64,000 nt of DNA from Blasia pusilla (GCA_050084515.1 CM114271.1:35774001-35838000); one strand, 5' to 3'; positions 9,101-64,000 are shown, counted from the stretch's first letter. A program made the numbers and translations. Notes: generated by a model not told the origin, from the sequence alone.

Positions 9101-9551
9101 TCGTAACAGTGAAGAGATCTGCTTTTTCTGGCGAGTCAGGAGTACCTAACGTGGACTTAACGGGCAGTTAACGATCGGCCCGTGACATCCGATGCTCCCG
9201 GTGGTCGACGAGTGGAGAAAACACTCCACCGGCGTAGGCCGGTGGGCTCGACCCGATGCTGTCGGTGGTCAGGGTTTCGTAGGGCGTGAAGGCGAGGAGG
9301 AGGAGGAGGAGGAGAGAGGGGGGGGAGGAGCTGAGAATGAAGTGAGAGAGGGGAACAAGAGGAAGAGGCGAAAAGCTCGAAGAAGACCGAACCCTAAGAC
9401 GAGCGAGAGGGGAAGAGGTCACGGAATCGATGAGCGCTCATTCATTCATTTTCATGATAGTGGCGCAAGGGGAGAGCGAGGTAATCGGATCTGGAGAGAG
9501 AGGAGGGGCGCGAGGAATTGTGCGGTGAGTGGTGGTGGAGAATCGGGTGGG

Positions 9552-16510: not shown

Positions 16511-16529
16511 AGAGGGTTAGTGGTATGTT

Positions 16530-33701: not shown

Positions 33702-33989
33702 ACGGCCCTCCCGCACCCGAACCTTTCCTGTTCAAACACCGGCTATTGTCAAGGGAGGTATGAGGGCCAAAGGGGGGTACATGGTGGGATCAAGTATGAG
33801 TAGGGAAAGCTTGGGTGTGGGATGCATGTGCTTGGGCCCTGTTGCGCGCATACACATCGCTACAGAACATACATTATTGTTACCGAACACACACACAGAA
33901 ACACACACGATCCCATGCTAACTCATGACATCCAAACAACGAGACAAGAAGTACCAAAATATCTCTAAAATATGATCCAATCTCTCTTA

Positions 33990-39248: not shown

Positions 39249-40042
39249 TCTTACAACAACATAATTCTCACATATGTGCACTCTCACATATCTCTCTCAA
39301 TGTCAAACCAAACCCACTCTCCTAATGAGAGGCTTGGGTTACACACACAAGGCAAGCAAGACCATAGCTCCGTCACCTTATGCCAAGATGTTCAACAAAG
39401 AGAGAATGAGCTCTCAAGCTCTCTCTCTCCTTGAGGTATATCCCTCCCCTCTCCCAAACTCTCTCCATGGTAACCTATGCTCCCAAGTCACCTCCTTGGC
39501 TCTTGACCTAATGTAGGAGGTAAAGGGCCACTTTATAAAAATAGAAAGTCGATCATATACTCAAAATTGTACTTATCTAAAATAGTAAGTTTCTCAATAT
39601 GGCTCCAAATGAGCCGAAACGAAAGGAAAACCTATTCTCTCAAGTTTCCTGGAGCTTCAGCAGTCATCCTCGACCTACTGATCCTGTCCTCCACTACTCA
39701 CAAAGTTGCTCTACTAGATGTCACCGATCTATCCTAAAAGACGTGATAGTTGTGGTGTGCATACACATCGCTACACGACATATATACATCGCTATCATCG
39801 ATCACACACACAAACACATACGATACCATGCTAACTCATTGCATCCAAACAACTATCACCCTCCTAGATGGTGGTTAGGTCCTTCTAACTGCAGATAGCC
39901 ATCTATCCCCACTTACCATGACATATATCTCTCGGACGCTAAGAGCAAGAAGGTCGGATGCTCATGAGGCCCCATCGTTAGTCGCTTTCTTGTCATCCAT
40001 GTCACAAACACAAGTCAGAATGTAGAACTACCTAATCTATGT

Positions 40043-40177
40043 ACATCTGGGACACATCCATCGTCCCTGAGGAACCCTAGTGAGAGGTGGTATAAAACAT
40101 GCCATATGCCATCCTCTCGAACACCCATCACATAGTAGCATAGTGGTTGCACCATGGGCGAAACCACACAACACACA
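40043..40177 (-). pseudogene. PHD finger at the integrase C-terminus (copy 2)
   Basis: Manual translation CVLCGFAHGATTMLLCDGCSRGWHMACFIPPLTRVPQGRWMCPRC gives a complete C4-H-C3 pattern. Confidence 0.93.
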
Positions 40178-40186
40178 CCGCAAGCC

Positions 40187-41331
40187 TCAAGCAACTATTG
40201 CTAAGCTTGGATCAACTGTACCGTCAATCTTTGGAACATGACATGGCGCACAGTTACGTACATGATGCTTCCAAACCATACTATCACGTCCCTCGAATAA
40301 GAGAACACCGGATGGCAAAACCTCACGCACTCTCAAGATGGTGCGCCCTATAGTCACATCCAACGTCGTGGATGCCGTCTGCTGCAAGTAGACATAGTCT
40401 TTTTTATGAAACCTTGGGATATTAGATCGATAACCACCTCCCTGAATAGTCGCATACCTTCACCTATCCCGATGTTGCGCAATCGCCAAGTTCTCAAACG
40501 CCATGGGCATCACTCTCCGAAACAACTTAGCCCTCTGAGAACATGCTCGCATCCATACATCAGGGTCGTCAAGGTTCAATACCTCACCAACATCTCGACA
40601 AATGGACGTAGGTAAATCGGGCTCTCGGCCATAAAACAACAAGAACGGTGAGAAAGACGTTAAGGATGCCTGCCTACTGAATCTGTATTCCATCTCCAAC
40701 CACGGTAATTGAAGGTCCCAATCTCCTAGGTGACCTCTCTGCAAGCCATACTTGCGTAGTCCTCTCTTCACCATGTGCACAACCCGCTCTGGTAGTCCAT
40801 CTCCCCCAGGATGATCTCGCGAAGTAGTGCGGTCGTTGATCAGTGCCAGATCACACAAGGCCTGAAACTTCCCGCGGAACTGTGTACTCTGGTCTGTCAA
40901 CACCTCAACTAGTGCACCGTAATGACTAAGCACTTGATCTAAAAAGGCATACGCTCCTCCCTCACTCGCTTTGTCAAGAAATGCTACCAACTCTATCCAC
41001 TTCGAGAAGTGCTCGACCATCACCAACACATAATGACTATGGCGCTCTGTCAAAGGCAAACGTCCTGCAAAATCCAAATTCCATCCATAACCTAAACCCA
41101 TGATTGGAAGTGGATGCAACTGTGGAGTCAGAGCATTGAACGATGCTCGGACTCGATCACACACCATACATATGGCAACAAACTGATGAACGTCAGTCTG
41201 CATGCCTCGCCACCAATATTGAATCTGGAGCAAGTTGTACGTCTGCTTCACTCCAAAATGAACTAACTCCTCGTGGGCATCACGTACCAAACGTGCTATC
41301 TGCGAAGGATGACGTGCCTCACTGCCTGTGA
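40187..41331 (-). pseudogene. gypsy-type DDE integrase (copy 2)
   Basis: H-x4-H...CMVC zinc motif, LDFAG, VLTDQ, DGLPER. Confidence 0.93.
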
Positions 41332-41985
41332 TCAACAGCCCGCATCCAATATAGAACCCACCAATAAATCGGAGGGACGCTCCACTCTTGCATGAGCCTT
41401 CCGTAAAACCTCATGTGGTACCAAGTTGGTCCACCAAAGATGCGGGCGGTGTGCTCTAGAACCTACACTCGCCGTATCTAACAACACTGCCGGGCCGATC
41501 CATGCGCGTACTTGATGTGCACTCGTCACCACGCGGGACCTTGAATCGCCCAAAATCGGCACATTCTCCAAAATGTATGTTGGAGAAATAGGCTGATGCT
41601 CATGTAAATGTTTGCAAGATCCGCATCATCTCCCAAAACAACTTGGACCGAGAGTCAGCTAATCTGCTACCCCGTCTAGCACTCGATAGGCCCTGACAGG
41701 GCCAACCAGCAATGACCAAGTCTATGGTCCCTACCCGCTCCAAGTCCTACGCCCCCAACAATGAAATGTCCCTCAGTGGGGAACTCTAGTAACCCTAAAT
41801 GGCGGACGCAGAAAACAAGTCGGGAATACGTAGGCGTAACAACGCCACATGGTAAAGTAAAGCGCGCCTTGCAACATCATCAATCTCCACATACAAGTAT
41901 TGTTGCACAGCCACTCCAACCTGCAAAATAGCAGCTAACCCAATGTTAATCCCTCCAAAGAGATCCAACACCCGAATATCCTTCT
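41332..41985 (-). pseudogene. C5 cytosine methyltransferase domain, motifs I-VIII (copy 2; C-terminus deleted)
   Basis: IRVLDLFGGINIGL, YVEIDD, DLVIAGWPCQG (~41690-41722), ENV, LDTASVGSRAHRPHLWWTN. Confidence 0.92.
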
Positions 41986-42439
41986 CTATGATGCACCACA
42001 CAATCGGGGTGGTGTCCAAAGGGGTCATAGCAGCACTCATGCCTACCTAGGGTTCCTCTGACCCGTTACACTCTAGTGCAAACGTCTCGCTCCACGCGAT
42101 CTACACATGCTCAGTGGCTAAGCGTCAAAACTCCTCAGTCAAGCCCAAAGCGGCATCTCTCCTCCATGGACTGATGCGGCTATCAGGACATTCCTCTCCA
42201 TAGAAATGTCAGGAACGGGAGTATCCTCTACATGGACATGTCTCTCAATCAAATCACAAGGCCAAGTGATGGCACTGCTAAATGCTGCTTAGGTTGCCAT
42301 CTCTCCTAGCCGTCGCTCGATCACTGCACCTGTGAATCAAACAAGTAATGAGCTAAGGTGCCCATGACCTGATTGCCATCCTGGTCTGTAGGACGCTGAC
42401 TCCTCCCAGTAATCCAGGGAAAACTCTATCGGGTATAAC

Positions 42440-44555
42440 AGTGCTCCACCAACAAAGACGTGGTAGGACTCTGCATCAGTCACTATCGCCTTGGCTGCAC
42501 CACGGACTCATCTATAGGATGTCCCGAGAGAATCCTCACCACGACCTCCTATCGGGTAATATACTGTGTGGTACTTGCTCCACCCAAGGATGTCTGTATC
42601 CAGAATGGACAACGTGCCACATCGGCTCTCGTCAAGCCCAATCTTTTGAATGACGCTTTTCCCAGCATCAGGGGTTGCGCTCCTAAATCCAACAAGACGC
42701 GTTGCGGACTAAAAGCTCTACCTCTTGGACTCACCAACTAGAAGACCTCTCCCCGGTTATCTATTAAAACAACACCAAAATAATCCATGGCACGCTCTAT
42801 CGGGGGTCTAGCGGGCATCTCCGCCATCCTACCAGCCGCAGCCTGCCATGAATCTGACATGGACAGCCCGAGTATTAGCTCCAAGGACATGTCCATCACC
42901 TTCTCTGCAATCACCTGTGAACGTGACGCAGGAACTCCAACTCCAAACTCACATAGCGTACCGGCCAGCTGAAAAACCTCGACGGGCGTACTTCCCAACG
43001 TCATAACATCGAAAGAAAAAAATAAAGGAGCGCGGTACATAACGGTGGCCGCCCCCAACAACGTGCTCGACACATGCCCCTCATGAGCATGAGCAATAGG
43101 AGTTGTCGCACTTGTTTCTCCCATTGCCCTCCGTGCGTGCACACCAATAACATCACCAACTCTCCGGGAACTCTGATCAGGACCCATCAATAGGTTCCTC
43201 ATCACCTCAAACAACGTGAAAGACTGAGGAACCTCAATGCCATAGCGGAAATCTGCTCCTATAGCTGCTGTATCTAAGCAACAATCCCAACCTCACGCCC
43301 AACGTCTCTCTCGACGCGTCTAGGTGGTGGGACTCTACCTCCTCCACGGGAAATTCCAATTCGGGCAACTCCAGTTCCTTGTCTCCCAACGGGACCACCT
43401 GCTCCACGATCTCTAGGCCCACCAGGACCGGCTACTCGCTCTGGTGCCCTCTTTGGCCCTCGGTCCAGACGTAACTCGAGGATGTAAACTGAAATACCTC
43501 ATGCATGTGTGACCATACCTCTCATAAAAGTCACACTGATAACCTCCTGGTGCAGCACCATCTCCTCTACCATGCTCAGGCACACGTCCATGACCCTGAT
43601 GAGTGCAATCGCGTTGATGATGGACTCCACCACATGACCAACAAGTAATCATAGGCGGCTCCTACTGAGCTGCATATGAAGAGGCAGGTCTCTATGGCAC
43701 GGCCTCCCGGTATCCTCTCTGAGCTTGTGGTGCCACAGTCAACCTATCTTGGAGTCCACGTTGTTGCACTAGTGATGCAGACAATCGTGACTGCTCTCAC
43801 CCATAACCCATGGTGGCTACGCTCTCCTCCATCATATTGCACTCAATGTTCTCGGCGGTCCTAAAAAAATCCCTCAAGGTAGGGGAGGTGTTCATAAGAA
43901 GCACTCCCTCCCGCACCCATGTCCGTAGGGTCCGATCCAGCATTGCGTACCCTTACTGGATAGTTTGAACCTCTGTCACCCCCTGAGTGACGTTGATCAA
44001 CCGGCACAAGTGAGTGTAAGCCTCACGCAAACTCTCACTCGGGCGCCTCTGGAAGTTGTGGATGCTCCGCAACTTCTCCATCCGTACCCCCTGGTAGCTC
44101 ACCCTCAACTCAGCGAAGAACTCAACCATGGGGTTGAACTTGGGACGAACCTGACTAGACGGTGCAACTGCTCCAATGCGAGTGACCCCTCCTAAAACAT
44201 CAATAGTGGAAGAGGAAGTAGCCTCTCCTGACTCCTCCTCCTCATCTGGGAATGGCTCTGTCCATGACACATAGTGTGGATCATAGTAGAGTCGCCATGC
44301 CTCAATCTCCTGGGCATATCTGTGGGAGAATTCATGGTAATTGTCCATGGGCATCCCCTCTAAATGCTGGAACATACCATTCCATATTGTAAACGGGTAG
44401 AAATCTCCAGAGTTCCTAGCCTCCTGTGAGTCACACCAACTCCTAAACTTTGCAATGAAGTCGTATAGCTCTATAGTGCCAACAGCACCCGAAAACCTAC
44501 ACGGTCCTCTATCCCGGTCGTCCATCTCGTACGCCCAACTGGTAGGATGACTCAA
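42440..44555 (-). pseudogene. gag and aspartic protease region (copy 2)
   Basis: IELYDFIAKFRSWC; zinc knuckles CWSCGGVHHQRDC and CDFYERYGHTC; RVLLDLGAQPLMLG. Confidence 0.85.
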
Positions 44556-45377
44556 TGTGTACGATGGATCACTAACACACTACTCTAGACACTACCCCTC
44601 GTTTGAAGACGACACAGAAGCAGATTGAGGTGGTCTCTTACGTGGACACCCTTGAAACCTCGCACCCCTCTGGGTAAACCCTCTAGAGCTACTCTCAGGT
44701 CCACAACCTTGCCTCTCAAAATCTCGAAAGAACGCCATGATGGCCCTTGTGCCCCTCTCACACAATCACTCTCAATCTCACAAGTAATCCCTCAATCACT
44801 AAAACTAAACATGCGGCACTCAATCTACACTCTCTCACTAAGTCGTGTGGTATACGGCAACAAGCAGCGCAATCCGGAAAATCAAGTGATCTATCGTCTC
44901 ATCGACATCCCACACACGTCTATGTCCCCTAAACCCATACATCATCGATGCTCTTAGCATCAACACGAAACCCAATATCCCAAATAACTTCCCAATATCC
45001 AGAAATCCCTCACACGTGCAAGATAAGGGACTACAATGGATAACCTCACAATAATGTCAATGTCGCTCCTCGATAACTGCAAATCTCGACCCCAACTCGA
45101 TCGTGAAGATAACTCCTCCAATTAGCAAGTCGTACTCCTCTCGTATTGACGTTGCTCAAAACTCCTCAATGTGCGGTGCAGGTTCAGCGGTCCGGTACGG
45201 CACTGGTGGCACAAAACGGCTACAAACGACATGATACTCGGGAATGGTGTGCGGCACTCGGCAGCATATCCTCCTCAATCAGAAATTCACACGCTCTGCT
45301 CCTTAGTAAAGGAGCGGCTCCCCGATCCGAACGGTGCGGTGAGGCCACAAGCGGCACGGTGCGGCGATCGGCGGCGC

Positions 45378-46654
45378 TATGGTATAGTAAAATCAGCCAA
45401 TGTGTAAACTCCTTTCTGGTTAAGTATTAGCTAGAGTTTTATTAGTATTAAGTAAATTAGTTTAGGAAAAGAAAATTCTCATGTTTAAACGTCTTTATGG
45501 TGCCTCTTTTATGCGGGCCCAACTTTAGGAAAAGAGGTAATAAATAAAAGATGACTTTATAAAAGTAAAGTAGTGAGGTTGGTGATTTAATGAAAAGAAA
45601 AAGTAGGTTTGGTTGGTGGCTAGGTTAGTTGGGATAATTTGGAAAATATCAAGTGGGTAAAAGATGATATTTTAGAAGATATAAGAGGAAATCTACTTGT
45701 GTCAAAATATGATTGGCTAAGCCTTGAAAGGAAGCCATATGGCACAAGATAAGTTTAACTCTATTTCGTACTCTTATGGATCTCTTGTGAGTATATAAAG
45801 AGGAGGGACCTTCAAGGGTTCATCACCTTCTATTCCACATTTTGAGTCTTTCATGTCACTCTTGAGTGTATGGCTTTGGGATTGCTTGCTCTTCCAATGA
45901 GAGTGGATCACCCCTCTTGGGAGAGTAGCTTGACCATGGTCTATTCTTCGAGAGATTTCTAGAGTGTGATGTGTGTGTGGAGATGAGTGGTTTGTCACCT
46001 TAGAGGAGTGTAGTCATACTAAAATAATGAATGTTTTGGCTTGTTACTTTCCCAATGAGAGTGGATTACCCTTCTTGGGAGAATAACTCTGCCAAAATCC
46101 ATTCTTGAGGAGAGTAGAGAATGTCTATCAAACATGGATAGGGGTGGAGCACGAATTGTGCCCGACTTTCCTTTCCTCAATCCATACCATGTCAAATATT
46201 CTTTGTAGATAGGCACTGGTTCACTCGCTATTTAGTTTATCACTTTGGGGAGGCGTTCATGAACCAGGTCATTCAATCTCCAACTCCCGTGATCTTTCTT
46301 ATCGTCACATATGGAAGGAGATGGGATTGTACTTTGTATGTTCTTATATAACAATCCATGGACGTCAATAGGCCTGCTCGAGTAGGATTTAACACTAGTT
46401 ATGCTATCTTCCTCGTGTACAAGCGTAAAGTAGTTTATAGGGATTTTATAGTAAGGAATTTCAGGGTCCGATGTTACGAAGAAGTGATCGCCTCGGCACT
46501 TCCATTTGTGATACATGTTGTGAGAGAATGGAGAGTATACATAATAGTCTTGTATTGAAAAAGGAGAACTTCTTAAAGAGTTTACCTTGCATCGACCACG
46601 TCTGCTACAACTAGAAGGCTTGCCCTTACTCGAAGAAAGGCTCTCGACACAACA
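45378..46654 (+). mobile_element. ~1.27 kb solo-LTR-like unit, copy 2, inserted in the leader of gypsy copy 2
   Basis: Absent from the homologous site in copy 1 (~2984, GGCGGCGCGTT). Ends TATGGTATAG...CGACACAACA; flanks GCGC / ACAC. Confidence 0.8.
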
Positions 46655-46944
46655 ACACGTTGCGGCTACGGGCGTCACGGCACGGCACTCGATCGTCATC
46701 AAGCGGCTACCAATCACAACATAGCAACATGAAATGAAAACTCAAACATCATAACCCGAGGTCACGTGCCATCATTGGTTGATGACGAAACTCCAATGAC
46801 GGTGGTGGCCAAACCAAAGTACGTGATGGCGGCGCAAGTCAGAGAATCAGCGGTTGTCGTGGAAGACCCTCCACTCCGTAATGGCGGAAATGGCAACCAA
46901 GGGTGGACAACGACTGAACGCGGCGCTAGGCGGTGGACGATGGA

Positions 46945-47050
46945 AGGTGGACCGTTGACGATGACGGTTGACCGTTGATGATGACGGTTGACCGTTGATG
47001 ATGACGGTTGACCGTTGATGATGATGGTTGACCATTGACGATGATGGTGA
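46945..47050. repeat. 21-bp tandem repeat (GATGACGGTTGACCGTTGATG-like), ~4-5 units, in the element leader
   Basis: Direct reading; fewer, more degenerate units at ~3270-3340. Confidence 0.85.
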
Positions 47051-48217
47051 TGATTGAACGTCGACGGTTGAAGATGACTATGACGACGATCGCCTAGCAA
47101 TGGCAATTTTGCAAGATTGATCATAACTTTTTGTTCGTAACTTTACATTGCACATTGTTTGTTGCAAAGCGTGCACAGCTTCACGATCTACAACGGCATC
47201 AAAAAATATTTTGAATCAAATATTCTAGTAAAAACAAACGGGGACTATCGTAAAGCCCAATGTTTCTCCGACATAAAATTCGGCAACGCTTCCGCGCTGA
47301 TTTCTCCCAACAAAAATGTAAAACCTGTGAGAACACAAATTAGTAAGCTACATGGTGCTCCCAAGAGCACCAGCATGGAAAAATCCGCCCCCATACTCAA
47401 TTCCTATCGAAAATTGGGCAACGCTTCCGCGTGCCACTCTCCCGTACAAAAAATCAGCAAAGCAAAGCAGCAAACTTGCAAGGCTCTTGCTCCAGTGAGC
47501 ACTCCCATGAGCCATGAAGCGGGGAACACGGTCCCCCAACCTGCACCAAACATCGAGCAACCAACGAGCTCTCCATGAAGCTCTCTCACTCACTTATTCT
47601 CTCGTTGTAAAATATGATCCAATCTCTCTCACAACACCATAGTTCTCACATGTGTGCACTCTCACATATCTCTCTCATTGTCAAACCAAACCCACTCTCC
47701 TAATGAGAGGTTTGGGTTACACACACAAGGTAAGCAAGGCCATAGCTCCGTCGCCTCATGCCAAGATGTTCAACAAAGAGAGAATGAGCTCTCAAACTCT
47801 CTCTCCTTGAGGTATACCCCTCCCCTCTCCCAAGCTCTCTCCATGGTAACCTATGCTCCCAAGTTACCTCCTTGGCTCTTGACTTGATGTAGGAGGTCAA
47901 GGGCCACTTACCAAAAATAGAAAGTCGATCATATACTCAAAATGGTACTTATCTAAAATAGTAAGTTCCTCAATATGGCTCCAAACGAACCGAAACGAAA
48001 GGGAAAGCGTGCTCTCTCAGGTTTCTCGAGGCTTCGGTGGGTCATCTCCGACCTACTGAGCTTGTCCTCCACTACTCACAAAGGCGCTCTACTAGATCTC
48101 ACCGATCTATCCTAAAAGACATGACAGCCCACATGAAGATGTCCGTTGCTAGGACGGACATTATTCTACCAACATAGACTTTTTCCATGTGTAACCTTGC
48201 CAATATATCGTTGACAT

Positions 48218-51400: not shown

Positions 51401-52642
51401 ACATAGGCCATTTTTGGAAACTAGGCTAACTTTTAGCTTTATAAAACTCCAATTTCTTCATGGGCCCCACTACACTATGAAAAGCTTAACAAACAAAGTT
51501 ATGTGGTTTATCTAACTTGCCACTTTCACTACTCCTTTTTAATACATTGTCTCCCAATCTTCATACTATTATGGGCTAAGCTTTCAACTACACCACAAAT
51601 CCTATGCTAATTTGAAATTAGCTTAAGTAATTTGTAAGAGTTGACTTTATTTTGGCTCTATACTTCCTTGCTTTTCCTTAGAGTTATGTGTTAGAACCAC
51701 AAAGGAGTGGGATCATTTATGGTTGGGTACCTAAAACATACTTTGGAATGACATACTTCACTTTTACAAAACGTCTCATATGCCCATGTAGCAAAGAGTA
51801 AGATGAAATCAACTTGTTGGAATCTACTGTCTCTATTCATGGGATAAGCTCTATCCATATTCACTTATGATCATATGGAAACTAGGTTGGGAGGATGTGT
51901 TAGTCCATAAAAGAGTGTTACAAGAATTTTCTCTTTTAGGATGAGATAATTTCAAGAGAAAGATATTGTGGCGAAAGGGGTGCTAATCTAGATTAAAATT
52001 CTTCAAGAAATTGTATTATTGATGGTGATAAGTTTAAATGAAAACTAATAATAATTTTAAAAAAATTTAAAGAATTTTTTATCTTATTAAGCTAGCGGAG
52101 GCCAATTATCATGTGACCAAGATAATAATTTTCTTATTGCATGTGACAGAAAAAAAAATCTTGTTATCCTATTACCTTAAGTCAAGCACAGAGTTATTTT
52201 ATTTGAAATAGAAATGATTTTATAGCATGGGAAACTTCTACAATAAAAGAAAAAAATAGAGACATCACAAGATATATCATAATAGAGGTGACGACAATAG
52301 GGAAGTAAATTTTTGTCACTATAAGTAGTTACATAGTAATTTAAATATCTATTTATATTTCATGACTATTCTTTGTAAAAAAGGTTATTTAAAAAAAAGC
52401 TTTTACAACTAAGTGGGGAAGGTAGATAACTTTAATTGATATGGAAGATAATTTTACAAATTTATTATTTTTAAGTCAAGGAAAAAAATTGGAATTTAGT
52501 TTATTTAAAAAAAATTAATATCTAATTTTATAGCAATCCTTGTAATATTTTGATTTGAGAACAAATGGATCATTAAAAAACTAGAACATTTTCTTTTTTT
52601 CAGTATCAGTTTATCACATCTTAATTAGTTTGGGTGCAACTC

Positions 52643-53784
52643 TGTCATAAGGTGGCAGATGATGTTAACGACATGTCCGTTGCGTTCGGAGTGTCGTTTC
52701 TATCAAATCCCTTTTTTTGTCATTTTTGGCGAGGTGACCCATTGACTGAGTCAATGGTTACCCAATAACATGTGCACGGAGGTTACCATTTGGAGGCTAT
52801 TTTTTGAGGAACAGGCTTTTGGCTCTTCCCAAAGCTATAGGAGAGGGAGAGATGGCTTTCCCAAGCCATCTTTATCATGTTGAGCCTTACGAGCACCTCT
52901 CTTGCTTCTGTGTGTATAGGAACTAGGGTGCTAGTGTCCCGATTCCCTCATAACGGAGGATGGATGAGGCTTGATAAGATGATGTAGATTCGAGAGTGGA
53001 GTTGGCCGTGTGAGCTATTTTTACTCCAATCTTACATAAGAAAGATGCAAGGGGGAAGGGGGGAATTTGTTGTATGTAGGTAGGCAAGTGAGTTGCCTTG
53101 GTGGTGAGCCCTTCAAAGTGATGGTTAGTGTTTGTGTTGTCATTGTATTTTACCACTTGTCAAAGGAGACAGAGAATATGCACCCAATGCAACACTCTTC
53201 ACTCGCATTGATCATTTGGAGCAGAGGATTGCTGCCATGACGATGATGGAACTAGTGATAGGTACACAGTTGAGATAGCTAATTTAGTTCCAACCTCCAC
53301 TTTGTATCTTGATACGGGGAAGGATTATGCGTGTTAGAGGTTTATGAGTAGTGGGGCTCAAATCAAGGTTGTTGCGATGGTGACTCGAGGTGTTGTGAGA
53401 GTGACCGAGCTACATAGAGATGGGGTTGAGATAGTCGCACAAGAGGGCGCTGATGGGCGACATATTAGGGTTCCCGAGTTTTTTACGTTGTCAAAGAAAC
53501 TACAAACATCATCGATGGTGCCTAGACGACCTATAGTGCCCACAAGTAAGGCAGGTGCGTCGACGTCAAGAGGAGTTGGAGAGACGACTCTTAGGCTCGG
53601 GTGGAGCCACTAAGCTAGTGTCAACCACGTTGTTGGAGGTGGCCACGAGGATGAGCCAAGATTTTTTGATTTTGGCTATGGACTTGGCGGCGATGGGAGT
53701 TAGTCCAGCGGAGGTGTTTCGATTGGTTGCCACTCTCTGTGAGCATGGAGAAGTGACTGCCTCTCGTTTGGAGGTGGTAGACCT
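52643..53784 (+). mobile_element. Older DNMT-gypsy family copy, left part (A-like repeat plus gag-end); interrupted by copy 3
   Basis: Starts TGTCATA; A-like sequence to ~53050; reads ...EVFRLVATLCEHGEVTASRLEVVDL at the break. Confidence 0.8.
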
Positions 53785-55377
53785 TGTCACATCTGAGTAG
53801 CCGATAGGCCGAGATCTATCGTGGACAGGGTGTAGGAGCCAACAGACTATCTTGAGTGTAACTTCGTCCCACGGTGTCGGATGAGGTTGAGGATAGGTCC
53901 ATTGTGTTAGGAACGTTGTTTCTGACAACCTTCATGTTGAGGTCTTTCACAGCCGGGTGGCTTGTTGACCAGGTCATCCACCCCTGGTAACCTGTGCGTG
54001 CAGGTTACCAAGGGGAGGGCTATTTTTAGGGGAAGAGCCTTTTGGCTCTTCCCAACCCTATATAAGAGAGGAAGGTGGCTTTCCTAAGCCATCTTTCTCA
54101 TGTTGGGTCGTTGGAGCACCTCTCTTGTATGTGTGTGAGATATGACTAGGATGCTAGCGTCCGGATTCCTTGATAGCGTAGGGCGGACGAGGCTCGATAT
54201 GCCGATGTAAATTGAGGAGTGGAGTTTTAGGCCGGGTGTGCCGTTTTTACTACTCTTTATTTTTACATGAGAAAGATGTTAGGGGGCTGGTGGAAATTCG
54301 TTGTTTGCAGGTAGGCAAGCGAATTGCTTTGGTCGGGAGCCCCTGGAGACGTGTGTGTTGCGGGTGTTGGTCATTTTCCTGTTCGAAAGGCCGTGGGCGG
54401 AAGCGCTGTCCATTTTTCTCAAAGTTTGCTGGTGCACATGGATTGAGGACAGTGGCAGAGTGTAGTACGGAGTGGGATGGCGACTTTATTGTTGAGAGTA
54501 GCGAGAGTGTCAAGAAAGAGCATGAAGGAAAGGTTGTAGAGGCAGAGGCGGCCAGGGTGCAGAGGCGTTTAGGTCACAGAGGTGCGGAGGTGTTTAGGTC
54601 ACATTTAGGTTGGAGAGGCGGCCGGCTGCAGAGTCGCACAGTGTGGGAGGCGCGCATAGGGCTGCGCGCCCCCCACAAAAATAAAGAGTAGTAAAAACCG
54701 AACACCCGGCCTAAAACTCCACTCCTCAATCTACATTGGCATATTGAGCCTCGTCCGCCCTGCGCTATCAAGAAATTCGGACGCTAGCATCCTAGTCCTA
54801 TCTCACACACATATAAGAGAGGTGCTCCAACAGCCCAACATGAGAAAGATGGCTTAGGAAAGCCACCTTCCTCTCTTATATAGGGCTGGGAAGAGCAAAA
54901 AGGCTCTTCTTCTAAAAATAGCCCTCCCCTTGATAACCTGCGCGCACAGGTTACCAGGGGCGGATGGCTTGGTCAACAAGTCACCCGGCTGTGAAAGACC
55001 TCAACATGAAAGTTTTCTGAAACAACATTCCTGACACAATGGACCTATTCTCAACCTCATCCGACACGGTGGGACAAAGTTACATTCAAGATAGTCCGCT
55101 CGCTCCTACGCCCTATCCACGATAGATCTCGGCCTATCGGCTACTCAGATGTGACAGCTGTCGTGCGCATACCTATCGCTACACAACATACATCGCTAGT
55201 CACATCTACACCACACAACACTGATCTTCCTCACACACGGGTCGATCCACACATGTACAAAATCAACTCACACATATACATGGAGATCACACAACCGCCC
55301 CCCTAGCTGGCAGTAGGATCCCCCCAACTCCAAATAGAAAAAATCACATCTCTCTGACATGACCTACTACCCTATAC

Positions 55378-55512
55378 ACATCTCGGACACATCCATCATC
55401 TTGTGGGAACCACATCAAGAGGGGGGGTCAGACATGACATATGCCACCCTCGAGAACAACCATCACATACCAACCTGGTGGCTGCACCCCTCGCAGATCC
55501 GCACAACATACA
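55378..55512 (-). pseudogene. PHD finger at the integrase C-terminus (copy 3)
   Basis: CMLCGSARGAATRLVCDGCSRGWHMSCLTPPLDVVPTR*WMCPRC. Confidence 0.92.
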
Positions 55513-55560
55513 CCTCAAGCCTGCAGGTAACCACTGCCAAGCTCGGATCCACCATCCCAT

Positions 55561-56700
55561 CTACGTTCGGAAGATGACATGGCGCACAATTGCGCATATG
55601 ATCCTTCCAAACCATACCATACTATCCCATCCCTCCAACATGAGGACTCCGGTCGGTAATACCTTGCGCACACGTAGGATCGTGCGCCCTGCAGTGACAT
55701 CTAGCGTCGTGGGTGCCACCTGCTGTAAATACATGTAATCTCCAGGATGAAACCTCCTAATCCTTGGATGATAATCTCCTCCACAAATGGTTGCGTACCT
55801 CAATGTATCTCTATGCTGAGCAATAGCTAAGTTCTCAAAGGCCATAGGCATAACTCTACGAAAAACCTCCGCCCTCTGAGAACATGCTTGTACCCACACA
55901 TCTGGATCATCAAGATCTAACACCTCCACCATGTCACGTTGAATCACTGTAGGTAAATCTGGCTCTCTCCCAATGAGCAAAAAGTACGGTGAAAATGACG
56001 CCAAGGATGCTTGCCGACTAAACAATAACCCATAGCCAACCATGGCAACTGTAGGTCCCACTCCCTCAACTATCCCGTTGCAAGCCATACTTGCGCAATC
56101 CTCTCTTCACCGTCTGTACCACTCTCTCCGCCAACCCATCTGCCTCAAGATGATCTCTGGACGTGGTGTAGTGATCTATCAGTGCCTGATCACACAAGGC
56201 CTGAAACTCTCCCCTGAACTCCGTACCCTGGTCAGTCAACACCTCCGCCGGTGCACCAAAGTGACTAAGCACACGATCTAGAAATTCATAAGTTGTTCCA
56301 TTCCTCGCCTTGTCCGGTAGTGCCACCAACTCTATCCACTTAGAGAAATGCTCCACCATGACCAACTCGTACCTATGATGACGTCCCGTCTATGGCAAAG
56401 GTCCCGCAAAGTCTAAACTCCACCAATAACCTAAACCCATAATAGGCAACGGATGTAACTGCGGAGTGGGAGCATTGAAGGATGCTCGCACTCTCTCACA
56501 TACCATACATTTGGCCACAAACTGTTGTACCCCAGTGTGCATGCCGCGCCACCAATACTGAACCTGGAGTAAGCTGTAAGTACACTTTACTCCAAAATGT
56601 CCCCATTCCTCATGGGCATGTCGCACTACACGTGCTCGCTGGGAAGGATGAGGTACCACTTGTATCCTATCATCTCCCCATACCCGCAAAATGTGAGTCC
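55561..56700 (-). pseudogene. gypsy-type DDE integrase (copy 3)
   Basis: HEEWGH...CMVC, SLDFAGP, VLTDQGTEF, DGLAERVVQTVK. Confidence 0.93.
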
Positions 56701-57049
56701 CCTCCCACCTGAACCTCCTGGCTCTCTGTAGGATCCGATCCCGCTACCTGGCACTCACTATGCTCGCTATGACGCTAGTGCGCAAGAACTCCACAACCTC
56801 CACGTCGTCATGGATATCACGACCACCTGTCGCCTCCTCACTGACCTCCGGATCCAAAGACTCATCATCCAACCCCACCATTGGAGTCATCACCTGTAGC
56901 TGACGTGCCATAGTCAACCAACAAAGATAGGCATATGCATGCCAACCGGGCACCATCTCCTCATCACTCTCTCCATCGAGCTCCTGTGTCGTCTCTCTGA
57001 CTCGGACATGGGTTATGACTCAACTCATCCGCATCCTGGTTCAGCCAAC

Positions 57050-58400
57050 CTGGCCTATCAACCACCTCAAACCCATACTCTTGTAGTAATAGAGCCCACC
57101 TGCCAAGCTTTCCCGTAAGCTTGGCGGACTCCATCAACCACCTCTACGGCTGATGATCAGTGGTAAGTGTGAAAGGGTTGCTGAATAAATAGCACCTGAA
57201 ATGTGCCATGGCCCACACTGCAGCCAAGCACTCTCCCTCGTAGGAGCTGTACTTCGCCTCTGCAATGTTGTTCAATTGGCTCGCGTAAGCCACAATGAAC
57301 TCCCTCTCCCCGTCATCCCTCTGAGTAAGCATTGTTCCTAGATCCAACATGCTCCAATCTATATGTAACTAGAATGGGCGACCCCTAACCGGTCTCTATA
57401 AAATGGGTGAGGACGTCAACCTGTCCTTGAGATCCTGAAATGCTCGCTCCTCATCATCTCCCCACAACCAAACCTGATCAAGTCTCGTCAATAAGGTCAA
57501 AGACTTTGAGATCGCACTAAAACCCTTGACAGACCATCGATAGAAGTTCGCCAGTCCAAGAAATGCTCAAAATCGACTCATATCTGTAGGGCGTGGAAAT
57601 TGTGCAATAGCCTCTACCTTCGTCTGCTGAACGCCTAATCCACTCGGGTATATGGTGTGTCCCAAGTACTCAATCTACTCCTGAAATAATCTGCACTTGC
57701 CTGGATATAACTTCAGTCCATGTAACTGCAATCTCCAAAACACCTCCTCCAGGTGTCGCTCATGCTCCTCAACCGTGGAACTAAAGATAAGAATATCATC
57801 TATGTAACATTGTACAAACTCCAAGCCAGCCAGAATCCTATCCATCACTCTCTGAAACTCTGCAGGCGTGTTCTTCAACCCAAATGGTAAGAACCGCCAC
57901 TGATACAAGCAATCTCTCCCGAACCGATCTATCCCCCAGAATGTTGTCTTCCTCCTTGTCCTCCAACTTGATAGGAAGCTCATGATAGCCAACACAAAGA
58001 TCTAAAGTACTGAAGATCTTTGCATGCCCTACCGCATCAAAGATCTCCTCAGGAGTAGGCATGGCATACCGATCTGACCTCGTCTGTCGGTTGATAGGAC
58101 GTTAATCTCCACACATCCGCCTATCCGTCCAATTGTCATACATATCCTTCTTTGCCGGCATGACTCGGGCAGATGCATACTCCCCATGTGATAACTCCAC
58201 AAGTCCTGACTCCTGCTCTGAATTAAGGCTCGCTCCATATCCGAATACGTGTAGGGTCGACGAAAGATCGACGTATCACTAGCCAACTCAATCCGTATCC
58301 CAGGATCCTTCAGCGTATCCAAGTCTCTCATATTGAAGGCAAAAAAATTGACATGCCCTCTCAGAAACCTATGAACTCGCCGTCGCTCTCCTCCTATCAA
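57050..58400 (-). pseudogene. Reverse transcriptase and RNase H (copy 3)
   Basis: MPTPEEIFD..FSTLDL..GYH, LPFGLKN, YIDD (~57800), VAYAS..YSSYEGECLA, TDHQP. Confidence 0.95.
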
Positions 58401-58759
58401 CTTGAGACCTATCATAGGCTCCCAAGTCTCCATCGTGACCTCACTTGATGAGGACGCAACCTCCAGATTTGGTTGCTATGTAGCAACCCTAGCCACCTCC
58501 GCAATAGCCACCTCCGCAATAGCCACTCCACGGTGACCTCCTAGACCATGCTCCACATCCAAAAAATGAACATGTGTTACTCTAGCCGCCTTTGCACTCT
58601 CTGCTCAAACGACGTCCTAGGAAGTCCATGGGTGCCTATCTCTCCTCGTCTCGCCCCCAGCTAATGCCTGTACAGACCCTGTAGGCAATGGTCTAACTTG
58701 TGGACGTAACAGCATGGATGACACTCGTATCCGTCTCTGCTCAGCCATACCTAGGCTGA

Positions 58760-59700
58760 CTATCCATGTGAGACAGTTGAGGACCATCACCTGCCCCAAC
58801 ACCTCTCTTCGGGATGTCTAAGTCATCCCTGGAACCGCCGTAGTAGCGGTAGCAAACCCCATGGCGCGCTCGCGCTCATCTGCTGTAGGCTCCTCCAATG
58901 CTCCGGTCACCTCATCCCAAATCATGCCTGGCCCTCCTTGACGAAAGGCATGGGATGCTGGGAAGCTCACCAACATAGGTAAGGCTGCCCTCAACTCCCC
59001 CACCCTATTGGCCATGGCCAACGGTGGTCTATCATCCTGTGTCACCACCTGAGATTGTCGTCCTGAGCCCCAAATTGCATCCACTATGAGATGTGGTGCT
59101 CTCTGGACTCCATCGTATGCTCGACTCAGTACCTCTGATGGTATCCGGTTTGTCCACCACAGTCGTGGACGATGGGCACGTGATCCAACTCTCGACGCAT
59201 CTAGCAACACAGCAAGTCCCAACCAGGACCTCACCTGATGCACACTCGTCATCACACGTGCATGAGTGTCTCCCAACAACGGCACGTTCTCCAAAATGTA
59301 CGTTGGAGAACATGTCTGACTCTCCTGCAAGTGTCGTACTACTCGCAACATCTCCCAAAACATCCCTGACCTCGGATCGTGCAATCCAAATCCTCGGCCA
59401 GTTGATGAATGACCCTGACATGGCCATCCAGCAATCACCAAATGAATGGTGCCAACTCTATCCAGATCCTACCCCCCAAAGAGATGTCGGCGGGTAGTGT
59501 ATGCTGATATCCCCGTATTGTGGATACCGGCAACAACTCAGGAGACCTCTGGACCAATCTCGTCACGTGACATATTGATACTCGCCACACGGTCTCATCT
59601 ATCTCCACATAATGGTACTTATGCACCCGTATGCCCGCCTGCAATACTACAGCCAATCCGGTGCTAATCCCTCCGAAGAGATCTAACACCCTAACACCCT
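58760..59700 (-). pseudogene. DNMT3-like C5 cytosine methyltransferase domain, motifs I-X (copy 3)
   Basis: VRVLDLFGGISTGL (I), YVEIDE (II), IAGWPCQGHS (IV), ILENV (VI), LDASRVGSRAHRPRLWWTN (VIII), ERERAMGF (IX), VLGQVM (X). One frameshift near 59440-59480 and a stop at 58818. Confidence 0.95.
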
Positions 59701-60059
59701 CCTCTGGGCACTCCCACACAACGGGTGTCGTATCTAGTGGGGTCAACGTCTCCACTCCAAGAGCCCGATTGCCACGTGACTCTCGCTGCTCCGAGATAAA
59801 GGCATGACTCCACGCCTGCCTCACGAGGTCTTCGACACTCCTTTGTAGCTCTCAAGTCGTACCCCACAATGGTGAAGAGGTCTCGCCAACATGGGAAGAG
59901 ACATCCGCCATGGCCTGTCTCTCTGTGGGACTATCCGCTACTGGGACATCCTCCGTATGTGCATTCCCCTCCAACAACTCTCTTGGCCAGCTAACACTAC
60001 CTGTGAAAGCTGCCAACGTGGTCATAGACTCGCCTCGTGATCGACCACCTTATCCCGCA

Positions 60060-62461
60060 AACTACACGGGTAATTGACTCATCCGCCCGTCACCTGACCG
60101 CCACCCTGGCCGATAAGCAATGATCTCCTCCCAAAAGACAAGGATGAATCCTTGGGGATATAACACTGAACTCCCCACAAACACATCGTACGACTCAGCT
60201 GGTGTCGTAATCGCATGTGTGCGCACCATAGCACTATCCGTTGCATGCTCTGGCTGGACTCTAATAACTATCTCTTGCCGAGTCATATATTGCGTGGGTG
60301 ACACACCCCCAATCGAGGTCTGTATATGGAAGACAAGGCTCAATGTCGGCCTTCCGTAACCTCAACGCTAAACACACCGCCTTCCCTAACATCAAGGGTT
60401 ACGCTCCCGAATCAAGTAGGACGCGCTGCGTGTGTTATACCGTCCCCGTCGGACTAACCAAGCAAAATACTCTAGCTCGGTTATCCAGTAGCACTATCCA
60501 AGTGTCACCACTGCTCGCTCTATGGCCGGTCGAGCTAGCATATCTACCAACTTTGCCGCCGCCGCATGCCATGACTATGTGGGGAACGTCCCAAGCACCG
60601 GCTTTGAGGGCAAGTTCACCACCTCCTCAACTACCTATGAACAAGAAACCATCACCTCTCCACGCTCACACAACGTGGCGGCCAGCCGGAACACCTCAGC
60701 TGGTCCAACTCCCAAGGTCGCCAACTCTATGGCGGAGAATAGTGGAGTCTGACTCACTCTGGTGGCCACCTCCAACACTATGGTCGATATTGACTCCACT
60801 CGAGCCGGCATAGGAGTTGTCACTCCAACTCCTCGTGATGTCGACGCACCTGCTAGAGCTATAGGCACCGCTGGTTGTCGAGGCACCATCGATGGTGTGT
60901 GTAGTGCCTCCAACAATGAGAATGACTGTTGAACCCTGGCCTGCCGCCCATCAGTCCCCTCTAGTGGGTCAATCTCAACTCCACCTCTCGATGGCTCGGT
61001 GCCTCTCGCAGAACTTTGAGTCACCACTGTAGCTGCCTCAACCTAGGCTGCACTACACATAAACCCCATACTGGAGAGATCCTCACCCCGGTCAAGGTAA
61101 GAGGTAGAAGCTGGAGCCACACTAGCTGCTCGCGGCTCCATGCCTTCCCTGAGCTCTATCATCGTCATGGCAGCAATCCTCTGCTCCAACTCATCGATGC
61201 GTGAGAGAAGTGTCGGCTCTAGTTCTCCTACTCCATCTCCTTTGGCTGGTGGTGGTCCTCTACCACCACGTCCAGGAAGAACTCCCCAACCTCCTCCAAG
61301 ACGACCGCCCCCAGGCCCTTGGCCTACCTCTTGGTGTGCCTCTCGGTGAAGGTCAAAACACCTATCCCTACTGTGACCATATCTATGGCAATAGTCACAC
61401 TGGTGTTGTGGTGGGGCCATCCTCTGTGGCTCCTTAGCAATCGGAGGTGCTCGTGGTCCTCTCCCATGCTGTGGGGAGTCTCTCTACCTATGGGCCCCTC
61501 CACACGTCCAACAAGACCACATCGGTCCCTGCTGGGCAACATATGTAGGTACGGGTCGTTGCCTCATAGGCTCACGGTACCCGCCCTGCTCTCTGGGCAC
61601 ACCGGCCCGCTCCCGTGGTACTGGTGCTCGCTGTGGCACCTGTGGGGTCATCAGCGCTCATGGACCCGTCGACTCTCAAGAAAATCCTGCGGTCACTACC
61701 TGCTCCTCACTCATGTTGAGCTCAATACCCTCAGACAACTCGAAGACCACCTTCAATGTGGGCTCTGCTGTGTGAATCAGCACCGCATCCCGAACTCTCC
61801 TCCGTAGTTCTCAATCCAGAACCCTGTACCAATACTGGATTGACTGCGCCTCAGTCACTCCATACGTAGCAATGATCAGCCTCCTCATATGTGTGAATGC
61901 CTCTCTCAGACTCTCACCCGATTGTCGCTAAAAATCTCGTAGACTCTTCAGCTTGTCGATGCGTACGCCTTGGTAGCTCTTCCCCAACTTTCGGAAGAAC
62001 TGCACTGTGGGGCTGAAGCTAAGTGGCCCTCTACCACCAGAGATCTCTGCCACATCCCCTGTCTCACTGCCCTCCTCTCCATCTAGTCTCCGGGCTGATG
62101 GTGTGGGTCTCTCTCCTCTCACAATCCCATCATATGCCTCGCGACCACTACTAGACACATATCTTGGAGCCCAATACATCCTCCAAGCATCGATCTCTAT
62201 TGAATATAGTGATCAAAACTCCATGTAGTCATCCATCGGAGGACCCTCCAAGTGCTGGAACAACCCTTGCCATGCCATGAAAGGGTTGAACCGTGTCGGG
62301 GTCCGTATCTCCTGGAAATCGCACCACGTGTCGAACTCCTGGATAAAATCATCTAAGTCCATGATGCCCATTTGCACCCAAGAAACGACGCATGCCCCGA
62401 TGGCCCATGTCGTCCATCTCCTGCCAAGTACTACTATCTCTGTCTGCGATCTTGTCACCAT
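60060..62461 (-). pseudogene. gag and protease region (copy 3)
   Basis: MDLDDFIQEFDTWC; zinc knuckle CDYCHRYGHSRDRC; RVLLDSGA*PLMLG ~60385-60430. Confidence 0.85.
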
Positions 62462-63717
62462 ACCCAGTGTCTAGTGATGATGATCTTGTCACGGATGGAT
62501 GTCGAGGTAGCTTTTTTTTGGTAACCCCTCGGTATCTCACTCCACTCTATGTCACACCACCACCACTACTCGCACTACCCCGTTCTTCCGAACCTTGGAA
62601 GAATGCCGTGATGACAAACCGTGTCTCACCCGCTCAAGCACTCAGACTCACCGAGAGTCTCCCACACTCCTCACTAGCTCACCTATGCTAACATCAATCC
62701 TGTGATGACATACCCGGCCTCACGCACACTCAACACTCGGGCTCACCATGAGCCTCCCAACTGCCTCACCTAACCTAGCGACACTCTCTCGGGTCATACA
62801 CGCGACCCCTACTCGGCAACCACCGTATATCCACCAACATGCTACACATGAAAAGAATCTACACTCATCACCATCACTGCACCCATCTAGCACCAACTAC
62901 TACCCGATACCCAGCACTCTCAATCACACACGACAAGTGCACAAAAGGGACTCGAATGGGTAACCTGATAACGCCCTCCAACCTACTGCACCGTCAACAT
63001 CCACTCCTCCACATGATATGACAACCTCCGCAACACCACACTCTCCTCAACCAACATGTGAAACCTCCCGTCAGTGTAGGTTCGTGTGTCCCCATCACAA
63101 CCCTCGCAATTCCCAGTCGGTGAAGAACTAATGAGTCGTCCTCCAACCTACTCGTAACGACCGACAAAGTCCTATCGCAAATCCCATCCACGCTCGCGAG
63201 ACACTAAGTCCTGCAAAACTCTCCACTGCGTAACCGAATTCAACCACGTCGGACCCCAACCATGTCTTCCCTTATGACTACGTCCGACTTTACCATGTCA
63301 CTCCCGTCAATTGTGGTACCATGTCGGACTGCCCTACCACGTTCAGCCCCTGCAACTCCACCACATCCACTCGGCCCTGACCACATCCACATGTGCCATA
63401 CCACGTCCATCACGGTGCCCTATGCACCTCCTTAAATGCGAAAAATGGGGGAGGAGGAACCTGGCCCACGGCCCTATGCAGGCCTCCCTTAGTACGGGAA
63501 AGGGGGGCGTGCGGCCCTATGCGTGCCTCCCACATTGCGGGGAGGGGGGGGGGGATTTAGGGTTTAGGTGCGCGCATGTGTTGTGTGATCTCCATGTATA
63601 TGTATGAGTTGATTTTTGTACATGTGTGGATCGACCCGTGTGTGGGGAAGATCGGTGTTGTATGGTGTAGATGTGACCAGCGATGTATGTTGTGTAGCAA
63701 TAGGTATGCGCACGACA

Positions 63718-64000
63718 GCCTGCCCTCGGAGCATGTACGCGGTATGTCCCCCACTCGATCATGGCAAGTTTTGGCGGCGAAGTTGATGGATATGCCATCT
63801 TGACCAACCATAGAGTGATCCATGATGACACCAGATATAGTATTGCTGGACAATTGAGTTGGAGTCTTTTGCTTGGTTAGTTCAATAGGTACGTTGTACC
63901 ATCCAAAGTGCGTTCTACGGGTGCGCAACCCTTGATGTTAGGAAAGGTGGTGTGTTTGGTGTTTCGGACATGAAATATTGAGCCTTGTCCCTTTCAGATA
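63718..64000 (+). mobile_element. Right continuation of the older copy interrupted at 53784
   Basis: Rejoining gives GTG GTA GAC CTG CCC TCG GAG (VVDLPSE), followed by family sequence SWQVLAAKLMDMP. Confidence 0.85.

Follow-up and report, generated by a model that had tools for sequence, protein, structure and literature searches.

A palindromic joint within the long terminal repeat and the insertion termini of a split-repeat Ty3/gypsy family in Blasia pusilla

Introduction

The closest described system to the retroelement family studied here, a Ty3/gypsy-type family present in a 64,000-nucleotide stretch of Blasia pusilla DNA (GCA_050084515.1 CM114271.1:35774001-35838000; this whole stretch is hereafter called the window), is KnitGypsy-Dnmt3 of Klebsormidium nitens, for which a figure legend gives the repeat structure of a DIRS element together with Gypsy domains (de Mendoza et al. 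2018, PMC5890265). The subject of the present work is a palindromic joint between two repeat modules, designated P and Q, of the window family. Both systems combine a Gypsy-type pol with a Dnmt3-like domain, and the window family shares with KnitGypsy-Dnmt3 the placement of a methyltransferase domain inside the Gypsy pol as well as the DIRS-like repeat layout. The text passages on KnitGypsy-Dnmt3, in contrast, contain no palindromic joint, spacer, target duplication, polypurine tract (PPT), primer site or insertion mechanism (PMC5890265). The nearest named relatives of the window family are liverwort proteins (identity of at most 76%), whereas Klebsormidium-labelled proteins reach about 45%. 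No other description of a split-repeat or permuted Gypsy element with an integrase was found in the literature; the Klebsormidium paper, whose supplements may hold more, was the sole match.

Elements of the DIRS order (PAT, Ngaro) have the same A1-coding-B1-A2-B2 layout as the window family, with an internal copy of the joined ends. They use a tyrosine recombinase and leave no target duplication, whereas the window family is marked by TG..CA ends, duplications of 4 bp and a DDE integrase. DIRS-1 carries inverted repeats and an internal complementary region, a geometry mimicked by the rearranged window copy at 53785-63717.

In retroviruses, the palindrome of the junction between two long terminal repeats (LTRs) has 4 bp between CA and TG. 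The integrases of prototype foamy virus (PFV) and human immunodeficiency virus type 1 (HIV-1) are reported to cleave the palindromic 2-LTR junction (Delelis et al. 2005, 2007; PMC1180852, PMC1905944). The likeness lies in a retroviral-type integrase that cuts an internal palindrome of two abutted ends to give processed ends, cutting in the window family being presumed. The retroviral palindrome is a U5|U3 junction formed anew in circles, whereas that of the window family is encoded in the LTR, inherited through RNA and has a spacer of 2 bp; the U5|U3-type joint of the window family (P|Q) is a separate and imprecise one.

For the Tf1/sushi group and Tcn1, passages of a plant survey describe self-primed reverse transcription, with a primer site complementary to the transcript start and not to a tRNA; in the passages searched, the survey mentions neither PHD, methyltransferase, Marchantia nor Klebsormidium (PMC6317226). 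The complementarity of primer site and transcript start is shared with the window family. Unlike the latter, Tf1/sushi and Tcn1 have ordinary LTRs at both ends, and the likeness here concerns the primer arrangement, not phylogeny.

Yeast Ty3 has canonical LTRs and a tRNA primer site. It resembles the window family in the homology of its reverse transcriptase (RT), RNase H and integrase and in the order of these domains (7q5b), but is without the Dnmt and PHD domains.

Palindromic joint between the Q and P modules

The joint is best explained as a putative internal copy of the two ends used by the integrase, set head to head with a 2-bp spacer and lying inside the LTR. Module names were set on the coding (minus) strand, on which Q ends in ..CGACA and P starts with TGTCA(C/T), and the boundary between the modules was mapped by self-comparison of the window and by alignments. 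The palindrome placed by an earlier note on this DNA at the B1/A2 joint was found exactly where Q and P meet, and its decayed counterpart in the other subfamily was likewise recovered:

55151-55165, minus strand: Q.P joint, GTGACAGCTGTCGTG, with the Q end ..CACGACA, the spacer GC at 55157-55158 and the P start TGTCAC..
39743-39757, minus strand: decayed joint of the second subfamily, GTGATAGTTGTGGTG, which reads ATA-GT-TG on the plus strand and ACA-AC-TAT on the coding strand

The first joint contains a 10-bp perfect palindrome, GACAGCTGTC, at 55153-55162, which occurs once within the window. The bare 15-mer was not found above chance in the window: with up to three mismatches allowed, 3 matches were counted where 1.2 would be expected, and a count of 3 was also reached in 14 of 100 shuffles. 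The non-random feature of the joint is its position, for it falls exactly where two repeat modules meet, and the termini of the element are made up of other copies of these modules. The 2-bp spacer was absent from all four termini of the two window copies and was replaced by a 4-bp target-site duplication, as the earlier note had described, although only GCCC is a perfect duplication, ACCT/GCCT agreeing in three of four positions.

Conservation of the joint and its half-sites among metagenome loci

Eighty metagenome loci were fetched by means of an alignment of integrases; all were oriented with the integrase on the plus strand, and P and Q were mapped by homology. Downstream of the integrase, the loci were as follows:

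28 loci: Q.P.Q
2 loci: Q.P, then the end of the locus or a deletion
24 loci: Q only, then unrelated DNA
1 locus: Q truncated at the end of the locus
25 loci: uninformative

Full-length units numbered 16, of which 7 were P-coding-Q.P.Q and 9 were P-coding-Q, so that the two forms are roughly equal in frequency; neither P.Q.P-coding-Q nor the inverted layout was present among them. A scorable Q.P joint was present in 29 loci (locus L008 was not counted, as a deletion spans its joint); two pairs share flanks, which leaves 27 distinct loci and, together with the two window copies, 29 joints. The spacer was exactly 2 bp long in 29 of 29 (GC in 10, AC in 10, AT in 5, GT in 2, AA in 1 and TC in 1), a constancy that had been proposed as a check on the att-like nature of the site. 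The spacer variants are mostly transitions of GC, and the flanks beyond the termini are unrelated; the spacer does not behave like captured target DNA. The presumptive ancestral form of the joint is ACA-GC-TGT, within a ..GACA-GC-TGTC.. palindrome. Departures from ACAGCTGT were mostly C-to-T or G-to-A, including CA to TA and TG to TA; this pattern is as expected for methylated CAG/CTG sites in decay and may reflect methylation. The intact 10-mer occurred four times in the 852,825 bases of the loci, against about 0.8 expected, and all four occurrences were at a Q.P joint.

The half-sites of the joint were the exact insertion termini in 18 of 19 units, the exception being L070, in which the P start is truncated, and the flanks beyond the terminal CA were unrelated among units. 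Target duplications of 4 bp were perfect in 12 of the 18 scorable units, matched in three of four positions in 4 and were absent from 2 (L070, which is 5'-truncated, was left unscored). By layout, P..Q.P.Q units had perfect duplications in five of nine cases, with three at 3/4 and one with none, and P..Q units in six of nine, with one at 3/4, one with none and one truncated.

It is rather improbable that the palindrome has another role, as a protein-binding or regulatory site in U3 or as an RNA or DNA structure, and coincides with the ends through the reuse of the Q and P modules. Its place in U3, upstream of the TATA box, would suit such a role, as would the sequence CAGCTG, which we take to be also an E-box-like motif. 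This reading is opposed by the coincidence of the half-sites with exact termini and by the 12 perfect duplications; moreover, the CA and TG positions are the bases needed by a DDE integrase of the retroviral type, and the 2-bp spacing corresponds to the geometry of processed ends.

L079 also contains a solo P.Q unit (6131-6610), about 480 bp long, which has TG..CA ends and is flanked by a perfect CAAT duplication; it is either a recombination remnant or a small fragment that was inserted directly.

Polypurine tract, primer site and extent of the LTR

The true LTR ends were located from the following features of the 53785-63717 copy:

55298-55303, minus strand: G-run polypurine tract (a C-run on the plus strand), directly upstream of Q
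55159-55295, minus strand: internal Q, which opens the 3' LTR and follows the PPT directly
54677-55156, minus strand: internal P, the part of the 3' LTR with the promoter, R and U5
53785-54264, plus strand: terminal P, inverted relative to the coding region; starts with TGTCAC and contains a TATA box near 54059 and the primer-site complement at about 54090-54103
54265-54676, plus strand: 5' leader of 412 bp attached to the inverted P; opens with a 14-nt primer site of the self-priming type at 54265-54278

A G-run lay directly before Q1 in 23 of the 23 loci listed, in addition to that at 55298-55303 in the window. The 10-16 nt that immediately follow P1 match exactly the reverse complement of a segment of P located 31-34 nt after the TATA box. 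This complement was 14 nt long in the window copy (none of 2,000 random controls was as good), 16 nt in L003 and L004, 12 nt in L058, 11 nt in L055 and 10 nt in L047, L051 and L032; in these 7 of 17 loci and in the window copy, it exceeded at least 99.7% of about 1,950 controls (at most 5 equal). No tRNA-type (TGG-type) primer site was seen after P on inspection by eye, without a tRNA library. The primer site, being complementary to the predicted 5' end of the transcript, is thus a putative self-priming arrangement of the Tf1 type.

Since the PPT abuts the Q start and the primer site abuts the P end, the canonical LTR is [Q.P], with the transcript starting in P and the palindrome lying in U3, upstream of the TATA box; the plus strand accordingly starts at Q and the minus strand at the P end. 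The palindrome does join the two ends of the element, as the name "circle junction" given to it by the earlier note implied, but the classical U5|U3 junction is P2|Q2, and the palindrome lies inside the LTR. At P2|Q2, indels were found in 9 of 23 loci (+1, +1, -2, -2, +4, +6, about +17, +19 and one truncation), compared with 0 of 29 at Q.P; the second subfamily of the window has a 25-bp filler at this place. Such imprecision is as expected of end joining rather than of templating.

These data bear on the possibility that the RT itself produces a permuted linear complementary DNA (cDNA), P..Q.P.Q, through additional template switches or alternative priming, in which case the palindrome would be incidental and the integrase would trim ordinary ends. 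Template-guided completion of cDNA is thought to operate in DIRS-type elements of the same repeat layout, amplification of DIRS-1 through a linear single-stranded cDNA has been reported (PMC7192593), and the joint is present in RNA reads. Nevertheless, we consider this route unlikely: the single PPT precedes Q and the single primer-site-like complement follows P, which places the primer-defined ends at the Q start and the P end; the flanks of the Q end and the P start are neither purine-rich nor tRNA-like; and the P2|Q2 joint is imprecise.

Host DNA and RNA reads

Host reads were taken from a whole-genome shotgun run (X19) and an RNA run (X20, a raw run with the same species label) at a likeness of at least 90%. 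The genomic depth of the family was about 450-1,000, whereas that of the single-copy stretch 63232-63575 was about 10. Among the joints in the genomic reads, the dominant one was a perfect abutment of the P end to the Q start (317 + 17 reads); minor forms of this joint were shifted by 1-5 nt or, in contigs, contained 1-6 inserted letters. Reads diverging into unrelated sequence did so exactly before 55159 (933 reads) and exactly behind 63717 (491 reads), with an agreement of 0.33 and 0.34, respectively. These divergence points are termini at CA/TG, without GC and with diverse flanks.

The host reads also bear on whether the layout results from nesting, tandem insertion or an assembly artefact, that is, from two adjacent elements. 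Retroelements are densely nested in the window, and the 53785-63717 copy is itself rearranged, with bridging reads over its two odd internal joints not shown. We give this explanation hardly any credence. The arrangement is found again in 28 independent metagenome loci, where the duplications lie on either side of the P..Q.P.Q unit as a whole; a gap of 2 bp is too short to be a 4-bp duplication shared by neighbouring elements; and both the P|Q joint and the termini are recovered in the raw host reads.

In the RNA run, the strand pattern fitted sense transcripts. The depth over pol was low (2-19 within 53600-63900), and these reads are sense if the library is of the usual kind; the stranded reads over pol suggest that at least some members of the family are transcribed. 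The joint was crossed into the P start by 35 RNA reads, and the palindrome is therefore carried in the transcript.

Proposed insertion mechanism

The integrated copies establish, at the level of sequence, that the inserted form corresponds to a circular permutation of [QP]-coding-[QP] that appears to have been opened exactly at the palindrome, with 4-bp duplications of the DDE type. It is probable, although with some reserve, that nicks are made by the integrase after CA in both palindrome strands and that the joining of the canonical cDNA ends is imprecise. In such a pathway, reverse transcription would yield an ordinary linear cDNA with two [Q.P] LTRs, the outer ends of which (the P end and the Q start) would not serve as integrase substrates but would be joined imprecisely, either ahead of cutting, which would give a 2-LTR circle, or by host end-joining once insertion has taken place. 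The integrase would bind one palindrome and nick 3' of CA on both strands, with the nicks 2 bp apart, and each new end would then carry a recessed CA-3'OH together with a 5' overhang of 2 nt, as processed retroviral ends do. Concerted insertion would give the 4-bp duplication, and the overhangs would be lost on repair, which would leave the spacer missing at the termini. If a one-LTR circle, or both palindromes, were cut, the P-coding-Q form would result; it is predicted to be a dead end, as it would have no 3' R.

The intermediate of circular or permuted form suggested by the earlier note gains support from the inserted P-coding-Q.P.Q permutation, in which the PPT precedes Q and the primer site follows P, cleavage by the integrase being the presumed step. 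Such positions of the PPT and the primer site in a permuted layout would require that the canonical cDNA ends are joined and that the insertion ends are made at the palindrome.

Several considerations weigh against this pathway. The support for it is drawn from integrated copies and genomic reads; cleavage, a circle or a free cDNA end was not observed. Random cutting of 2-LTR circles predicts equal numbers of P.Q.P-coding-Q and P-coding-Q.P.Q, and the numbers found were 0 and 7 (binomial, about 0.008), so that an unexplained directionality or a faster collapse of P.Q.P-coding-Q is needed. The P-coding-Q units could equally have arisen from recombination between Q1 and Q2 after insertion, and their abundance is no proof of a one-LTR-circle route; simple inheritance through RNA, and not selection, could account in part for the constancy of the 2 bp. 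The primer-site complement was weak or absent (0-8 nt) in 10 of 17 loci, which are mutated copies in which exact matches only were scored. Finally, no intact, demonstrably active element was seen, all copies examined being degraded.

A broader formulation has, in our estimate, an even chance of being correct: that the family would represent a streptophyte Ty3/gypsy lineage with an obligatory circle junction acting as an att site, in which the natural cDNA ends are never used, two nicks 2 bp apart are made, in restriction-like fashion, in the LTR palindrome, end-joining of the cDNA termini (as a 2-LTR circle or in repair after insertion) is required to bring a complete LTR into the genome, and the DIRS-like layout is convergent, without a tyrosine recombinase.

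The family provides a natural system, defined in sequence, in which it can be tested whether a retroviral-type integrase is able to act on an internal palindrome and to use cDNA that is circular or end-joined, an idea long debated for 2-LTR circles. The exact landmarks for experiments are the PPT, the self-priming primer site, the TATA box and the presumed cut site. Split direct repeats, a feature treated as diagnostic of tyrosine-recombinase retroelements, are present here alongside a DDE integrase; consequently, the repeat layout alone misclassifies such elements, and standard LTR finders are expected to miss them or set their bounds wrongly. Beyond Klebsormidium, the methyltransferase-carrying Gypsy lineage would also take in liverwort-like genomes and numerous metagenome contigs associated with plants.

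Coding content and classification

The family is of the Ty3/gypsy type and is encoded on the minus strand of the window, with Dnmt, RT, RNase H, DDE integrase and PHD domains. In the 53785-63717 copy, the following regions were recognized:

59768-63579, minus strand: 5' region, no gag domain recognized
55378-59767, minus strand: degraded pol, from scans of open reading frames (ORFs) and tblastn with full-length relatives
59767-58743, minus strand: Dnmt (C5 cytosine methyltransferase) domain of the first subfamily
58224-56967, minus strand: RT, including RNase H at 57368-57144
56821-56066, minus strand: integrase zinc finger and DDE core
55560-55396, minus strand: C-terminal PHD finger

The integrase domains matched were the PF17921 zinc finger and the PF00665 rve core, and the methyltransferase is PF00145. 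The best-preserved ORF of the window is an integrase ORF (40460-41410, minus strand), for which 70 matching proteins of greater length were recovered; the named ones belong to liverworts (identity of up to 76%) or to Klebsormidium nitens (about 45%). RVT_1, RNase H, rve and PHD domains are present in many of the 70, and PF00145 in several. The residues D113, D173 and E208 were invariant in 13 of 13 aligned integrases, with the 35-residue D,D,35,E spacing kept. The closest solved structure is the Ty3 Gag-Pol polyprotein (7q5b, E = 2e-94), and the best stand-alone solved integrase match to the family is the PFV integrase (E = 4.5e-18).

In the second subfamily (39751-48126), the methyltransferase lies directly upstream of the integrase, in the place between RNase H and integrase (41338-41971, minus strand), whereas in the first it is upstream of the RT; no RT was detected in the second-subfamily window copy. 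Both orders are present among the database polyproteins (P0018 versus P0040), and the order Dnmt, RT, integrase was found in nearly all of the 80 metagenome loci. In the ORFs scanned, no gag Pfam family was found, and protease matches in two of six upstream ORFs were weak and below the Pfam cut-offs.

The RT-RNase H-integrase order, the Ty3-like RT, the D,D,35,E integrase, the TG..CA ends with a short target-site duplication and the PPT and primer site are all those of Ty3/gypsy elements. Identical complete LTRs at both ends are not found: P stands alone at the 5' end, and Q.P.Q at the 3' end (seven of seven full-length Q.P.Q units and the window). From the DIRS order, the family has the split direct repeats, but neither a tyrosine recombinase nor the lack of a target duplication.

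The coding content also speaks against integration of the kind seen in true DIRS elements, in which another enzyme, from a trans-acting tyrosine recombinase to the recombination machinery of the host, would act on a circle. To our knowledge, tyrosine-recombinase elements make no target duplications. The repeat layout is that of the DIRS order, as given in a figure legend (PMC5890265), and this speaks for such an enzyme. We nevertheless hold it to be very improbable, given that the 4-bp duplications and TG..CA ends are the signature of a DDE integrase and that rve was the only integrating domain found in three full polyproteins and the window ORFs, with no tyrosine recombinase domain among them.

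Rearranged copy at 53785-63717

The 53785-63717 copy is one insertion in an older related fragment of a third, shorter family, which resumes at 63722; a paralogous empty (uninterrupted) site for this insertion was found at about 17540-17620. Its remaining boundary features are as follows:

53781-53784: left target duplication, ACCT
63718-63721: right target duplication, GCCT, matching ACCT in three of four positions
63580-63717, plus strand: terminal Q, inverted relative to the coding region; ends in ..CGACA

The copy consists of the terminal P with the 412-nt leader, a body (5' region, coding region and Q.P) that is upside down, and the terminal Q. The terminal modules are inverted relative to the internal joint (53785-54264 against 55156-54677, 92.5% identity; 55157-55295 against 63719-63580, 95%). 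In this copy, the joint is therefore the reverse complement of the reading given in the earlier note (right end, GC, left end); the direct A1-B1-A2-B2 order applies to the second subfamily and to the family at large. The canonical LTR outer ends (the P end and the Q start) are both precisely fused to new partners. The first 78 nt of the leader at 54265-54676 resemble the leader of the fragment at 53034-53111, and 37 nt at its end are similar to positions 43-80 of the 5' region, which may only reflect a repeated motif.

An inverted layout as a DIRS-1-like trait of the family was considered and rejected, as it was shared by none of the 24 loci with long flanks; the inverted repeats present in L051 and L065 are unrelated ones. 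The segment 63232-63575, adjoining the inverted Q, is single-copy in the host reads. Because no locus shares the inversion and this segment is single-copy, 53785-63717 looks like a one-off rearranged derivative, made at or before insertion. Autointegration was rejected as the cause of the inversion, since the expected 4-bp duplication is missing at the two internal breakpoints (CCAC versus ACAT). The copy, a single one, fits a model in which the integrase would hold the two terminal pieces and repair would join the rest.

L078 has an inverted Q (192-278) at a distance of about 2.9 kb upstream of the Dnmt; another Q, at 7139-7327, ends at CA, beyond which the DNA is unrelated; there is no matching duplication, and the locus may be a second rearranged copy or two elements.

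Other copies and neighbouring sequences in the window

The second-subfamily copies comprise the following features:

33840-48126, minus strand: second-subfamily element, a single insertion with TG..CA ends and a perfect GCCC duplication (33836-33839 and 48127-48130)
33840-33940, on the plus strand: Q2, followed by the 25-bp joint
33966-33989 and 39250-39748, on the plus strand: P2, split by a copia insertion
39749-39750: spacer of the second-subfamily joint
39751-39853: Q1
40043-41308, minus strand: second-subfamily integrase
47608-48126: P1
1-4445, minus strand: third copy, of the second subfamily; reaches the window start, with the P of its 5' end finishing in ..GTGACA at 4445

On the coding strand, the 33840-48126 element thus reads P1, leader and coding region, Q1, 2 bp, P2, the 25-bp joint and Q2, that is, the A-coding-B-A-B arrangement of split repeats. 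Nested in its P2 is a degraded copia-type element (33990-39249, plus strand) with traces of gag, beta-barrel, pre-integrase and RVT_2 domains and LTRs of about 305 bp (33990-34292 and 38941-39249). A 1.28-kb repeat unrelated to the family is present in two copies that are 89% identical, 45378-46656 and 32429-33703; the former sits in the body of the 33840-48126 element and is missing from the homologous position of the 1-4445 copy. The third, shorter related family is represented by the fragments 16529-18899 and 52628-53784 + 63722-64000, in which P is followed almost directly by the 5' coding region.

An uninterrupted frame of 590 codons was found at 9186-10958 (plus strand) with both N-myristoyltransferase domains (PF01233, E = 1.7e-76; PF02799, E = 1.2e-75); its product is presumably a myristoyl-CoA:protein N-myristoyltransferase.

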